NCBI GenBank assembly: GCA_964400755.1 | Contig: CAYNVX010000001.1 | Coordinates: 1-45,460, forward strand | Source: an uncultured bacterium | Lineage (GTDB): Bacteria > Chlamydiota > Chlamydiia > Chlamydiales > SM23-39 | Direction of reading: 5' to 3' | DNA: 45,460 bases | Shown: positions 20,387 through 25,137 of the stretch, piece by piece | How positions within the stretch are numbered: position 1 is the stretch's first letter | Layout of the letters: each line of letters opens with the position of its first letter | Program-made: the position numbers and the translations under genes | Notes under the pieces: generated by a model | What the model was told of the DNA's origin: nothing | What the model saw: only the letters and a program-made list of their open reading frames with translations | Database searches by the model: none

Positions 20387-21245
20387 TCGCTCTTTTTAAA
20401 CTAATATCGGTATTTTCATCTTTAACAATGATCTCTGTTGGATTGGAGATATTTGTAAAGCTTATGAAATCCCATATCTTGGGATTTAATTGAAAGTGCT
20501 TCTTTGTTAGAAGATCATTTAATCTTTCTTTAGTTATCTCTTCACCTAGTAATTGAAGTTTTACAATTTCCTCAGCAATTTTTTCATTAAACAGGATAGA
20601 TAGGATTTCAAAGTGGGCAGAGTTAATAGGAATTTTATTCTTCTCATCTCTAATTTTTATAAAATCTAAAAGAGAAGGATATCCAATCTTTTCCTTATAA
20701 TTATAAAATTTAGAGCCTTTCATCATTTTATAATATATAGGCTGAAGATCTTTTTCTTTAAGTTCCAACTTCGCCAAATGAAGTTCATTAGCAGAAAGTT
20801 CTTCTTTAAGACTTTCTTTAGCACTAAGCAAAATATTATTTAATATCTCTTTATCAAGGTTTTTTATTTTGAGATTTTTAAAAAAACCGTTTTCTAAATA
20901 TAAAACTCTTATCAAATGTAAAATAGATTCATATAATTCGGGGTGGCTCTCTTTTCCTTCAGTTATCAGGGGATAGATATTAAAATAGGATTCTGATCTG
21001 TTTGGCTCTTTTATTTTTTTAACTTTTTCAGTTTTGATTTTTTGTTTTATCTCTTTTTCATTTTTTTCAGTTTTGATTGTTGAATAATAATAGGTTTCAC
21101 TTTTTGAGGTAGCTCTTCTTTGAACCTTCATATAGCCGACATAGCTTTTTGAAATAATATCCGAAGAGACTTTCTTAGATAAAAGCATCTGTGTTGATAT
21201 AGCAAATATCATAAGTATGGTTATAACTAAACTTAAGATGTTCAC
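20376..21245 (-). CDS. Membrane-anchored hypothetical protein, GspK-like minor pseudopilin candidate
   Basis: 289 aa with a GTG start that overlaps the upstream stop (GTGA), suggesting translational coupling. It has an N-terminal TM segment, and the IPINSAHFEIL block resembles the GspK NxNTA motif. Confidence 0.5.
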   Translation of the reverse strand: MNILSLVITILMIFAISTQMLLSKKVSSDIISKSYVGYMKVQRRATSKSETYYYSTIKTEKNEKEIKQKIKTEKVKKIKEPNRSESYFNIYPLITEGKESHPELYESILHLIRVLYLENGFFKNLKIKNLDKEILNNILLSAKESLKEELSANELHLAKLELKEKDLQPIYYKMMKGSKFYNYKEKIGYPSLLDFIKIRDEKNKIPINSAHFEILSILFNEKIAEEIVKLQLLGEEITKERLNDLLTKKHFQLNPKIWDFISFTNISNPTEIIVKDENTDISLKRAINL

Positions 21246-21964
21246 GATTGCACTCTTTTTTTAGGATAGGAAATGTTTAACATTTTTGATGGTAGAAAAA
21301 AAGAAAAATCTAGATCATCCGAAAGCTTCAATTTGATAATGGAAGGAAGATAATTTTTTTCTTTTGACCAAAAATCTATCCATTCCAGATCTTTACTGAC
21401 AGCCTCTTTTTTATAAGCTTTATTTTCAGGCTCTTTATTAGATAAAAATCTGAATTCAATTTTTTTAATATTTTTAAATAAGGTCTCATCTCTAACAATA
21501 TTTTCTAATATTTCTTTATTATCCGTTCCCCAAATTTTTAACTTTAAGTTTTTTTCATCGTCTATAAAAAGCTTGCCTACAACAATCCCGCTAAACTTAG
21601 GGTCAGGATCTATGCCGTTGTCAAAGGCAAAATATAAGGAGGTTTTTTCATTTTTTTCTTTTTCTGTAAAAAAATATTGTTCATCGGAAAACTTTTTTAA
21701 AGAGGCATTTGAAAAAATATTAGAAAGCCTGATTTGTATATGCTGTTTTTGAAAAACATCAGCTTTAGCAACTTCCAGTTTTTTTTCTATTTTGGTTATT
21801 TGTACAAAATAGCCGAATAAAACAGTTAATATTATAGAAGTTAAAAAAAGTGAGATCATCACTTCTATCAATGTGATATGGTGCTTCTTCTGACATACTC
21901 CCACGGCTAAAGCCGATGGGGTTCTAAGGTTTGGCTCTTTCATGCCACTATCCTCGCTGGGCAT
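21242..21964 (-). CDS. Pseudopilin-like protein with prepilin-type N-terminal motif; the 5' end of the ORF is fused to the IS end
   Basis: KKHHITLIEVMISLFLTSIILTVLF matches the prepilin-type cleavage/methylation region. The first ~23 codons of the tracked ORF (MPSEDSGMKEPNLRTPSALAVGV) lie inside the IS right end and the tnpB 3' end, so the real start is uncertain. Candidates are 21943 (IS-borne) or 21859. Confidence 0.55.
   Translation of the reverse strand: MPSEDSGMKEPNLRTPSALAVGVCQKKHHITLIEVMISLFLTSIILTVLFGYFVQITKIEKKLEVAKADVFQKQHIQIRLSNIFSNASLKKFSDEQYFFTEKEKNEKTSLYFAFDNGIDPDPKFSGIVVGKLFIDDEKNLKLKIWGTDNKEILENIVRDETLFKNIKKIEFRFLSNKEPENKAYKKEAVSKDLEWIDFWSKEKNYLPSIIKLKLSDDLDFSFFLPSKMLNISYPKKRVQS
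21900..21920 (-). repeat. IS right-end (tnpB-proximal) subterminal hairpin
   Basis: CCCACGGC-TAAA-GCCGATGGG forms 8 bp with one bulged A. Confidence 0.8.
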
Positions 21965-22794
21965 GCCAGATGCCCCTCTCCAACATCTCTGTCTATTGGA
22001 GATTGAAGAATGCCTTGATGTCTAAGCGATATAACGAAAGACGCATTTACATCAGCATTTTCAACGTGTCCACAAGAACACTTAAATATTTTCCCTTTTC
22101 TTTCGCCAAGAAGTCCGCATTTAGAACACTGTTGAGAAGTGTATCTCGGATCAATCTTTGCTACTGGAACGCCATGCAGCTTAGCCTTATACTCAATAAA
22201 TGTCTTGAGTTGATAAAATGACCAACTGTTCAGGGCATACCTGTTTTTTCTATTTGTTTTTGCTGTTTTCCGGATATCTTTTAAATCCTCAAAAACAATT
22301 CCTGATTTTTTCTCCTTAGCTTCATTCACTATTTTGTTCGAAATTTTATGGTTTAAATCCCTCACAATTCTTGACTCTTTATTTTTTAAAGTCTTGACTG
22401 ACTTAAATCTATTTTTCTTTTGAAGCTTTCTTCTTATGTTTTTATATTTCTTGTGTGTGTGATTTGCTGACTTTCCCAGCTTTAATACTTTTCCGGATTT
22501 TGGATCGGAGGCAACGCAGCAATGTCCTGTTGTATTAAGATCAATACCAATCCAAGAATCAACCGTTATTTGCTCTTCTTCTTTGATGGTACAAGAAATA
22601 TATGCAAACTCTTGATCTAACTCAATTTGATTGATCTTTTCGACGTCTTTTGATGATCTACTTTTAGTCTTGAGAGCAAAAAGAGCAACTTGCCTTCCTT
22701 TTTCAAGTTCTACAGATAGGTTTTGGTTGTGTTTCACTTTGTGTGTTAAAATCATGCTTGAATTATAAGATGGCCAGCGATATAATGTCAACAT
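21940..22794 (-). CDS. tnpB: TnpB (IS605 OrfB-family RuvC-like nuclease), unusually short
   Basis: 284 aa with RuvC-I IGIDLN (D85), RuvC-II VFEDL (E169), the zinc finger CSKC...CSC (C223/226/239/241) and RuvC-III ENADVNAS (D248). Only ~84 aa precede the first catalytic Asp. Confidence 0.85.
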   Translation of the reverse strand: MLTLYRWPSYNSSMILTHKVKHNQNLSVELEKGRQVALFALKTKSRSSKDVEKINQIELDQEFAYISCTIKEEEQITVDSWIGIDLNTTGHCCVASDPKSGKVLKLGKSANHTHKKYKNIRRKLQKKNRFKSVKTLKNKESRIVRDLNHKISNKIVNEAKEKKSGIVFEDLKDIRKTAKTNRKNRYALNSWSFYQLKTFIEYKAKLHGVPVAKIDPRYTSQQCSKCGLLGERKGKIFKCSCGHVENADVNASFVISLRHQGILQSPIDRDVGEGHLACPARIVA

Positions 22795-23188
22795 GAGTAG
22801 ATGGAAAACTTCAAAAACAGCCGTATTTAACTTGAGCTATCATTTAATCTGGTGTCCAAAATATCGAAGAAAAGTCCTAGTAGGAGATATTAAAGATCGA
22901 TTAATTGAATTGATTTATGAGAAGGCTCAACAACTCGAACTTGAAATAGTTGAGGCTAATGTTCAATCCGATCATGTTCACCTTTTTGTTAGATCTATGC
23001 CGATTCACTCACCACAATTTGTCGTCGGACAATTAAAAGGACACACTAGTAGCATTTTGAGAAAGGAATTTTCCACTTTAAGAACGAGGATTCCAACATT
23101 GTGGACAAGATCGTATTATGTTGATAGTGTTGGAAAATTAAATGAGCATACAATTAGAAAATACATACAAGAGCAGGAGAAGAAATAG
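22793..23188 (+). CDS. tnpA: IS200/IS605-family Y1 (HUH) transposase TnpA
   Basis: 131 aa with YHLIWCPKYRR, the HUH motif DHVHLFV and the catalytic-Tyr block RSYYVDSVG. Confidence 0.93.
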   Translation: MSRWKTSKTAVFNLSYHLIWCPKYRRKVLVGDIKDRLIELIYEKAQQLELEIVEANVQSDHVHLFVRSMPIHSPQFVVGQLKGHTSSILRKEFSTLRTRIPTLWTRSYYVDSVGKLNEHTIRKYIQEQEKK

Positions 23189-23198
23189 ACGCTCTCAT

Positions 23199-23218
23199 CC
23201 CACGGCTAAAGCCATGGG
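23199..23218 (-). repeat. IS left-end (tnpA-proximal) subterminal hairpin
   Basis: CCCACGGC-TAAA-GCCATGGG is the same stem-loop as 21900-21920, with a C/A mismatch in place of the bulged A of that copy. Confidence 0.8.
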
Positions 23219-23265
23219 CTTTCCCGCTTTTGTCGTAAATCTTCAAAAAAAACCTTCAAAAAATA

Positions 23266-25137
23266 TTATTTAAGTTTTTTTTGTCTTTTTAAAGTAAAAG
23301 TTAGGACGAAAAGAGCAAGGACTGCAAACATTATTACACTGATATATTGAGGGAAAACGGATGGTTTATCTACCGCTATCGCTCCCGTTATTGTAAGCAG
23401 TGCTATTATTACTCCTGTAAAAGCATCACCGCCTATCAACCCTGAAGATATCAGAAGCCCTTGTTCCTGCGCTTCTTCTTTTCTTGTGTGCCTATTTACA
23501 TAGGCCGCTATAAGACTGCCGAACATAATAGCAGTATTCAGAGAAAGAGGCAAATAGACTCCCATTGCAAAGGGAAGAACAGGTACTCTTAAAAGAGCGA
23601 CAATAATTCCTAAGACTACGCCTATTCCAACTAAGGTGAAAGGCAGATCGCCTGATATAACACCTTTGGCTATCATGGAAATAAGTACGGCCTGTGGTGC
23701 CGGCATAGCAGCTGAGCCTAAGGTATATGCTTTGTTTAAAACAGCTATTGTAATACCTAAAACAGCTGCTGGAATTATAAGTCCTATTATTTCCGCAAGC
23801 TGTTGAGATCTGGGTGTTGCTCCAACTAAAAATCCAGTTTTTAAATCTTGTGATGTCGTACCTGCCATTGCAATGGCTACGTTGGCTACAGCGCTCATTG
23901 TTATCGCAGCAATAAGATAGCCTCGGTCTTTCCATCCGAGTGCTGTAAATAAGAGGCAGGTTATTAATAAAACGGTTAATGTCATGCCAGAGGTCGGATT
24001 GGAAGAGCTTCCTACAAGGCCTACCGTTATTGATGTTACTGCAACAAAGAAAAATCCTAATACCACCAGGAGTATTATCGTAAAGATGTTTAGTTTTGCT
24101 ATCGGAAGAAAGGTAAGTGTTCCTACTATGATAATTGTTCCGATAATCAGCCAGGCAAGAGATATGTCTTTATCAGTTCTGTCTAAGTTGGCCGGAATAC
24201 GAAAACCTCTAAAGAGTTCTTTTAATCCTACATGGACAGTTTTAAATAGAAGCGGCCCAATTTTTATTAAACTTATAAAACCACCGGTTGCCACAGCTCC
24301 TGCTCCAATATACCTAACATAATTTGTCCAGATGTCTAAAGCCGACATCTCAGTTATAGGTACAGTAGATGGAAAAATATTTGTATGTCCTGTTCCAAAC
24401 ATGTGGATAAGCGGAATTATCAACCACCAGCTTATGGCACTTCCCGCCAGCATCATACCTGCAATTCTTGGTCCTATTATATAGCCCACTCCTAAAAGAG
24501 CAGGGGTTGCATCGATACTAAATTGTGTTTTTTCAAAGGGCTTAATTACCCAAGTGGGTATTTCCTGCCAAAGGAAAAAGACATTTATACATAACTTGTA
24601 AGCTACGCCGACCAAAAAGCTCCATCCTGCCATTGCAGCGGATGTCTGTCCCTTTTCGCCGGCTTTTAAAATTTCAGCGCAGGCTGTACCTTCAGGAAAA
24701 GGAAGAACTCCATGTTCTTCAACAATAATATATCTTCTCATGGGTATCATAAATAATATACCCAACAGTCCGCCAAGAGCGGATAGAATAGTTATCTTTA
24801 ATATGGAAGTATTTTCGCCTAGAAAAAACAGGGCAGGGATAGTAAAGATAACACCGGCGGCCATTCCTTCGCCAACTGTTGCTATAGTCTGTGTAATGTT
24901 ATTCTCTAGAATGGTAACTTTTTTACAGATAAGTTTTAAAATGGCCATAGAAAGGATAGCTGCAGGGATAGAAGCAGATATTGTTGTTCCCGTCTTCAAT
25001 CCTAAATAGGCATTGCCGATAGCAAAGATAAAGCCTAAAAAGATACCTAAAATGGTAGCTTTTAAAGAAAATTCTTTTACCTTTTTCTTAGGTGAAATGT
25101 ATGGCTTAAAGTTCTTTAAATTATCTTTTGCGCTCAT
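23266..25137 (-). CDS. OPT-family oligopeptide transporter
   Basis: 623-aa polytopic, Gly/Ala/Ile-rich protein. The N-terminal block KATILGIFLGFIFAIGNAYLGLKTGTTISASIPAA is typical of bacterial OPT transporters. Confidence 0.8.
   Translation of the reverse strand: MSAKDNLKNFKPYISPKKKVKEFSLKATILGIFLGFIFAIGNAYLGLKTGTTISASIPAAILSMAILKLICKKVTILENNITQTIATVGEGMAAGVIFTIPALFFLGENTSILKITILSALGGLLGILFMIPMRRYIIVEEHGVLPFPEGTACAEILKAGEKGQTSAAMAGWSFLVGVAYKLCINVFFLWQEIPTWVIKPFEKTQFSIDATPALLGVGYIIGPRIAGMMLAGSAISWWLIIPLIHMFGTGHTNIFPSTVPITEMSALDIWTNYVRYIGAGAVATGGFISLIKIGPLLFKTVHVGLKELFRGFRIPANLDRTDKDISLAWLIIGTIIIVGTLTFLPIAKLNIFTIILLVVLGFFFVAVTSITVGLVGSSSNPTSGMTLTVLLITCLLFTALGWKDRGYLIAAITMSAVANVAIAMAGTTSQDLKTGFLVGATPRSQQLAEIIGLIIPAAVLGITIAVLNKAYTLGSAAMPAPQAVLISMIAKGVISGDLPFTLVGIGVVLGIIVALLRVPVLPFAMGVYLPLSLNTAIMFGSLIAAYVNRHTRKEEAQEQGLLISSGLIGGDAFTGVIIALLTITGAIAVDKPSVFPQYISVIMFAVLALFVLTFTLKRQKKLK

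Follow-up and report, generated by a model that had tools for sequence, protein, structure and literature searches.

The DNA considered here is a 45,460-nucleotide stretch (the window) of contig CAYNVX010000001.1, from the draft genome GCA_964400755.1 of an uncultured chlamydial bacterium, and it contains an IS200/IS605-type insertion sequence (IS) whose gene for the RNA-guided nuclease TnpB is unusually short. Our interpretation, to which we give a probability of about 0.85, is that this is a recently deleted and probably cleavage-dead TnpB in an otherwise functional-looking element, and that the element belongs to a compact, mostly archaeal clade. The initial annotation of the locus had offered two explanations, a naturally minimal nuclease or a remnant deleted at its 5' end; the alignments described below point to the loss of an internal segment.

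An internal deletion between direct repeats

The minus-strand open reading frame (ORF) at 21940..22794 encodes 284 amino acids (aa), and the probable coding sequence within it, which begins at a conserved MILTHK (21940..22755, minus strand), encodes 271. In protein alignments with full-length relatives, the window protein showed a single clean gap of 60 residues, KSRSSKD(V)/(V)EKINQ, corresponding to the loss of residues ~38 to 97. The 37 residues preceding the gap, counted from M14 of the 284-aa ORF, are ~90% identical to the N termini of the full-length proteins. DNA alignment with copies from three unrelated contexts showed the window element to be collinear with them apart from exactly 180 bp, and full-length relatives of the element measure 1525 bp versus 1345 bp for the window copy. 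One relative (L004) carries AAAGATGT flanking the 180 bp on either side, and the window retains one copy of this 8-bp repeat, AAAGACGT, at the junction where the 60 codons are missing (22643-22650, minus strand). Both copies of the repeat, AAAGAYGT, encode K-D-V in the same frame, so that any deletion from one to the other keeps the frame, and the open frame is no sign of selection.

Within the lost segment, 21 positions reach 90% conservation or more across the family. Outside the gap, the window protein deviates at 1 of 112 conserved columns, fewer than the median relative, and the sole deviation, an L-to-F change beside the catalytic Glu, is also present in another relative (P0035). When decay was looked for elsewhere in tnpB, none was found beyond this one position of the 112, and because nothing else has decayed, we judge that the deletion is most likely recent. 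In a collection of 5.8 billion proteins, the deleted protein formed a cluster of one sequence from one contig. Judged from the assembly alone, window TnpB appears to have lost 60 aa through an in-frame deletion of 180 bp.

The catalytic core is retained. The RuvC-I Asp (D85 of the 284-aa ORF, D72 of the 271-aa product; codon 22540..22542), the RuvC residues E169 and D248 (codons 22288-22290 and 22051-22053, coordinates computed from the ORF start), and the zinc-finger cysteines of the TNB domain, C223, C226, C239, and C241 (22072..22128), all on the minus strand, are invariant columns in the family alignment. The motifs listed in the initial annotation, including the CxxC..CxC, therefore hold, as do the spacings that it gave of 84 aa (D to E) and 79 aa (E to D). 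Window tnpB matched Pfam Cas12f1-like_TNB (PF07282) at 7.5e-24 and NCBIfam guided_TnpB (NF040570) at 172 bits, against a cut-off of 100. The latter match covers profile positions 129-387 of 389 for the 284-aa ORF and 148-387 for the 271-aa product; a full-length relative (P0003) aligns to positions 69-388. Pfam OrfB_IS605 fell under its cut-off for window tnpB (22 versus 30.5) and likewise for a full-length relative. The N-terminal part is short, as had been noticed from the sequence, and the cause is the internal gap.

Predicted structural consequences of the lost segment

An AlphaFold model of the full-length relative P0003, made from an 81-sequence alignment (predicted local distance difference test score [pLDDT], 85.6; pTM, 0.78), consists of a strand at residues 2-8, helices at 14-30, 35-41, and 45-56, six strands within 69-116, and then RuvC, with D132, E216, and D295. 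Foldseek matched this model to AsCas12f (E, 2.7e-17; TM, 0.65), to the ISDra2 TnpB structure 8H1J, and to the ISFba1 TnpB structure 8IAZ, and the sequence profiles agree with Foldseek for RuvC/TNB. A phmmer search of the N-terminal 143 aa of the full-length relative against PDB sequences returned zero matches, even at an E value of 10. The lost segment was mapped onto the REC and WED domains from the AlphaFold topology together with the Foldseek matches, without residue-level alignment to ISDra2; so mapped, the lost piece would comprise REC helices 2 and 3 (of three) and four WED strands, and the WED-REC lobe would be incomplete. When the 271-aa protein was modeled with AlphaFold, its RuvC/TNB core was preserved; the pLDDT was 82 overall and 65 at residues 31-40, where the junction lies.

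In ISDra2 TnpB, the helical REC is inserted into the WED barrel between the first strand and the remaining ones, and the cleft between WED and REC holds the duplex of the transposon-associated motif (TAM) and is the site of TAM reading and duplex opening; the changes Y52A, K76A, Q80A, and T123A each abolish cleavage (PMC10097598). Engineered shortening of this protein was tolerated solely in the disordered C-terminal tail (PMC10951260). Since this cleft is where ISDra2 reads the TAM, and single alanine substitutions in it are enough to block cutting, the 271-aa product is, by analogy, most likely unable to cut TAM-flanked double-stranded DNA.

The history of the locus can be proposed as follows. 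An IS200/IS605 element of the single-strand ("peel-and-paste") type, in which tnpA and tnpB are divergent, and from a clade whose TnpB is naturally compact (326-331 aa, with a three-helix REC), would have inserted 3' of TTAC, 12 nt from the start of a pseudopilin-like gene. The 180 bp between the AAAGAYGT repeats would then have been lost in frame, by slippage or through microhomology. Without TAM-dependent double-strand cleavage, the 271-aa product would no longer restore the element at an emptied donor site, and the element's own TnpA can probably still move it.

Boundaries of the element and its insertion site

The whole element occupies 21890..23234 on the minus strand, from the start of the left end (LE) at 23234 to the end of the right end (RE) at 21890. 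In DNA alignments, similarity to copies in unrelated contexts begins and ends exactly at these two positions. The RE core is GGGAGTATGTCAG (21890-21902), and the LE core occupies 23195-23227 (both minus strand). The tetranucleotide TTAC, the target and predicted TAM, stands directly 5' of LE (23235..23238, minus strand) and occupies this position in essentially every family member having a recognizable LE (40+ insertion sites), which supports the earlier guess of a TTAC-type TAM. The RE end GGGAGTATGTCAG and TTAC recur from archaeal through chlamydial copies with unrelated flanks, and in 140 loci conservation stops immediately after TCAG, beyond which the flanks are unrelated. Each end carries a subterminal hairpin, CCATCGGC-TTTA-GCCGTGG in RE (21901..21919, minus strand), which shows compensatory changes across the family, and GCCCATGGC-TTTA-GCCGTGGG(AT) in LE (23195..23227, minus strand). 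The two hairpins are alike and in direct orientation, with the direct repeat TCCCACGGCTAAAGCC at 21899 and 23198 and without terminal inverted repeats, and both stems covary across the family. A small element before groES (1497-1898) was considered as a relative and set aside; it is without the RE core of this IS family.

When the flanks of the element were joined, they read TTG AAG ATT TAC/AAG AAG CAC... (the slash marks the join), with zero duplicated bases. The translation, MKIYKKHHITLIEVMI, begins with MKIYKKHHITLIEV and is a prepilin-type leader resembling MLKKRSFTLLEV of a relative. Because the joined flanks give such a leader, the element appears to sit 12 nt (four codons) inside a DUF1494/pseudopilin-like gene with an N-methyl motif. 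The two parts of the split gene lie at 21242-21964 (minus strand) and 23235-23300, and the pseudopilin ORF that remains now reaches into the IS, as far as the ATG codons at 21964 and 21943.

Start codon of tnpB and the divergent promoters

Every relative begins with MILT[YH]K, and this conserved start is M14 of the 284-aa ORF (ATG at 22755..22753). The gene caller's own product for window tnpB (P0001) is likewise 271 aa. We rejected the 284-aa start since M14 is conserved and the promoter lies 5' of it, and the 13-codon extension upstream of M14 appears to be accidental. On the plus strand, tnpA (22793..23188) encodes a full-length Y1 (HUH) transposase of 131 aa, as does tnpA of the relatives. 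Its product matched Pfam Y1_Tnp at 1.6e-38, over profile positions 2-121 of 121, and NCBIfam transpos_IS200 at 1e-40 (138.8 bits, against a cut-off of 55).

With M14 as the conserved start, a 37-bp spacer separates tnpA from tnpB, and two overlapping divergent promoters are predicted inside it (22758..22791). The tnpB promoter on the minus strand (22791..22762) is TTGACA-18-TATAAT, matching the sigma-70 consensus at 12/12 positions, and its -10 hexamer ends 6 nt before M14; the tnpA promoter on the plus strand is TTGAAT-17-TATAAT (10/12). The spacer is 37 bp in relatives too (L004, 2964-3000), and the hexamers are conserved (alignment columns 536-576). These predicted promoters imply near-leaderless mRNAs for both genes, and a predicted transcription start at ~22755 would leave the upstream ATG at 22794 outside the tnpB mRNA. 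The overlap of the tnpA and upstream tnpB ATGs that the initial annotation described (shared 22793-22794) and the TATAAT at 22781-22786 are both present. Its statement that there was no intergenic promoter space does not stand: the M14 start frees the spacer, with two promoters back to back.

A covarying omega-RNA scaffold

The predicted omega-RNA scaffold (21890..22005, minus strand; ~115 nt) extends over RE and the final ~20 codons of tnpB. Covarying helices span 22005..21892, and RNAalifold gave compensatory changes in 22 of 27 pairs. Paired cells reached 94.1%, compared with 70% in shuffled alignments, none of which (0/500) scored as high, and 30-44% when the partners were slid. The window copy retains the scaffold helices. 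Beyond the RE end at 21890, a predicted guide portion, AAGAAGCACCATATCACATT (21870..21889, minus strand), coincides with the codons at which the interrupted pseudopilin gene resumes; its length is taken from the guide of ISDra2 (PMC10097598). An omega-RNA spanning RE and the 3' end of tnpB, whose guide would begin just outside, had been anticipated from the sequence, and the alignments support this, placing the predicted guide start at 21889. An Rfam scan of 21700-23400 found no known omega-RNA family and gave one chance snoRNA match (E, 0.55).

Two further observations concern the folding of this region. RNAalifold paired 22050-22053 (GAUG, at the codon for catalytic D248) with 21892-21895 (UGUC, the last bases of RE); these columns are almost invariant, without compensatory support, and the pairing may be a pseudoknot-like closing helix or may be due to chance. 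The helix GGGGCA..TGCCC (21957-21974) appeared compensatory by eye and was left uncounted, as the alignment register shifts between clades.

Distribution of the parent clade and other copies in the host genome

In all, 1774 relatives were retrieved from the 5.8-billion-protein collection. The best 120 of these (48-88% identity) were nearly all 324-347 aa long, with a mode of 331 aa. Those sharing 60-95% identity likewise measured 324-347 aa, most of them 331 aa. More than 600 relatives measured 326-331 aa; these were mostly archaeal, with Chlamydiae and candidate-phyla bacteria in addition. A tblastn search identified 160 further loci in species-representative genomes and metagenomes, with contiguous matches over residues 1-326 or 1-331, and the 60-aa gap was absent from all 160. 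Other short database entries end at contig ends. The orthologues are thus longer, and the window copy aligns to part of them only. Hosts of the clade include Methanosarcina, Methanothrix, Thermoplasmata, Micrarchaeota, and Asgard archaea (loci L015-L092 from genomes and L105-L172 from metagenomes), with scattered bacterial hosts among the Chlamydiae, candidate-phyla bacteria, and Trueperaceae. The near-identical RE end and TTAC throughout suggest that one compact type of element has spread widely by horizontal transfer.

Of the 200 genomes surveyed from the same order, few carried close relatives of this clade; two (G151 and G080) had intact matches over 1-331, and there were several fragments. 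One relative of 313 aa (P0030) has a different in-frame internal deletion, of 19 aa, in a helical insert after the RuvC-I strand. Remnants of tnpB in three chlamydial genomes (G000:C18, 2645-3469 [L002, 1234-2055]; G096:C23 [L200]; G205:C3 [L201]) are all cut at approximately residue 121-125, just before RuvC D132, and continue into unrelated DNA, so that the breakpoint is recurrent. In C18, the DNA after the remnant resembles the C-terminal end of another transposase.

The host genome is a 1.49-Mb chlamydial draft in 171 contigs, 89% complete. It contains a second, diverged copy of the element (C18), in which tnpA is intact and tnpB keeps the 60 aa and stops at approximately residue 122. Two ORF-less elements of ~360 bp are also present, in C40 (~11330-11687; L183, 1154-1513) and C19 (~15900-16254; L182), with the layout TTAC/LE, spacer, omega-RNA scaffold, and RE (GGGAGTATGTCAG). 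Compared with the window copy, both show compensatory changes in the main omega-RNA helix. Such elements would need TnpA in trans, plus TnpB for guide function. LE or RE cores occur within ~55 nt of the ends of contigs C101, C148, C150 (both ends), and C161 and of the start of C18, and the end of C161 is identical to the window RE over 55 of 55 positions. The assembly breaks at these IS repeats.

Weighing of alternative explanations

Several observations weigh against a damaged, cleavage-dead protein. The frame is open, the catalytic and zinc-binding residues are intact, the promoter is perfect, and the omega-RNA is intact, so that from its sequence alone the 271-aa protein may be active. The 271-aa form also still folds in the AlphaFold model (pLDDT 82), although such models are insensitive to destabilizing deletions. 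The interiors of the family copies at contig ends lie outside the assembly, and the genome may hold a full-length tnpB allele. The same intact features would be expected by the first proposal of the initial annotation, that a TnpB of 271 or 284 aa works as a naturally minimal RNA-guided nuclease without the full REC/WED module, and the retention of the RuvC/TNB core in the model agrees with it as well. We nevertheless regard this proposal as very unlikely, and it is not right as stated, given that all relatives keep the 60 aa with their 21 near-invariant positions. The short form is unique to the window contig, and its junction falls at a direct repeat that by itself preserves the frame. In ISDra2, the TAM-contacting residues lie in the equivalent helices and strand, and truncations of that protein have been tolerated solely in the disordered C-terminal tail (PMC10951260). 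The second proposal, a 5'-truncated remnant, was correct in that the gene is a remnant and that the ATG at 22794 is fortuitous, and the late start of the hidden Markov model match within the profile fits it too. The truncation itself was rejected, and we consider it effectively refuted by the alignments: residues 1-37 are conserved and align at ~90%, the spacer is 37 bp as in intact elements, and the loss is internal.

Our preferred explanation, a recent deletion in a real gene, also has to be set against the case in which the true locus is full length and the gap comes from mis-joined reads of several IS copies. The draft has 171 contigs, several of which end in copies of this IS, and one such end matches the window RE at 55/55 positions; this gives some room for such an artefact. 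We think it very unlikely, however, as an 8-bp repeat is far below the assembly k-mer length, the missing stretch is no tandem repeat, the frame is kept across a clean junction, and on both sides the contig continues into unique flanks. Slightly less remote, but still unlikely, is that the deleted protein keeps a non-cutting role, whether in omega-RNA binding or processing, in interference with full-length TnpB, or in damping TnpA. In ISDra2 the omega-RNA scaffold binds WED and RuvC surfaces (PMC10097598) and TnpB processes its own transcript (PMC10278001), and the host genome has ORF-less omega-RNA mini elements that require a protein in trans. However, the deleted form is conserved nowhere, four WED strands are gone, and nothing sets such a role apart from simple recent damage. 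A more speculative variant, to which we attach little probability, is that the 271-aa protein, retaining a single REC helix and a stump of three WED strands, assembles with the omega-RNA as a TAM-relaxed or single-strand-specific nuclease or as a modulator of the mini elements; if true, it would be the smallest natural RuvC guide-RNA enzyme. The minimal-enzyme, artefact, and non-cutting explanations are not strictly exclusive of the descriptive part of the interpretation that we favor.

Significance and comparison with known systems

Characterized TnpBs are quoted at 350-400 aa (PMC13639567). What appeared to be a record-small TnpB is probably a freshly damaged copy, which cautions against judging such proteins by ORF length alone. 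The parent clade is the more useful lead, as a widespread natural TnpB of 326-331 aa, below the quoted range, with a TTAC target, a sharp RE end, and a covarying omega-RNA of ~115 nt; its intact members (such as the 331-aa copies of related chlamydial and archaeal genomes) would be natural candidates for compact editors. The natural deletion marks 60 residues that are relevant to how much of REC/WED a TnpB needs.

In its general organization, the window element resembles IS605/IS608 of Helicobacter pylori. Those elements have TTAC 5' of LE, direct subterminal hairpins, and a Y1 TnpA, they lack terminal inverted repeats, and IS605 has the divergent tnpA/tnpB layout. The window element shares these features, a likeness at the level of organization, whereas its TnpB is much shorter than that of IS605/IS608 and nearer to the Cas12f type in RuvC/TNB. 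The Cas12f proteins (AsCas12f, 8J3R/8DZJ; OsCas12f, 9NZQ) gave the best RuvC/TNB matches, with a profile E value of 5e-29 in addition to the Foldseek match (2.7e-17; TM 0.65). However, the window protein is 90-200 aa smaller than these and is transposon borne, between LE and RE beside tnpA. No CRISPR repeat array was found in 20500-24500, and the NCBIfam Cas12f2 model scored window tnpB at 123 bits against a cut-off of 450.

Among the closest characterized systems to which the locus can be compared is ISDra2 of Deinococcus radiodurans (PDB 8H1J and 8EXA). Its TnpB has the same RuvC D-E-D triad, TNB zinc finger, and WED-REC-WED-RuvC order, and is likewise partnered with a Y1 TnpA; in ISDra2, as predicted for the window element, the guide RNA comes from the tnpB 3' end and RE and the target site serves as TAM. 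ISDra2 TnpB differs in being 408 aa long, with a four-helix REC of 104 aa and a TTGAT TAM, whereas the clade of the window element has 331 aa, three REC helices (~45 aa), and TTAC. The window copy is additionally without residues 38-97, and its sequence similarity to ISDra2 TnpB is confined to RuvC/TNB (E, 9e-6). TldRs are described as nuclease-dead derivatives of TnpB that fall into conserved clades and function in RNA-guided transcription control, as transcription factors (PMC13622181). As presented there, they are like window TnpB in being natural TnpB derivatives that lost part of the protein. In contrast to TldRs, window TnpB has intact nuclease residues, has lost part of its DNA-recognition module, and exists as a singleton form. 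The ORF-less, PATE-like derivatives of IS200/IS605 elements are matched in the same genome by the ~360-bp elements, whereas the window element keeps both of its genes.

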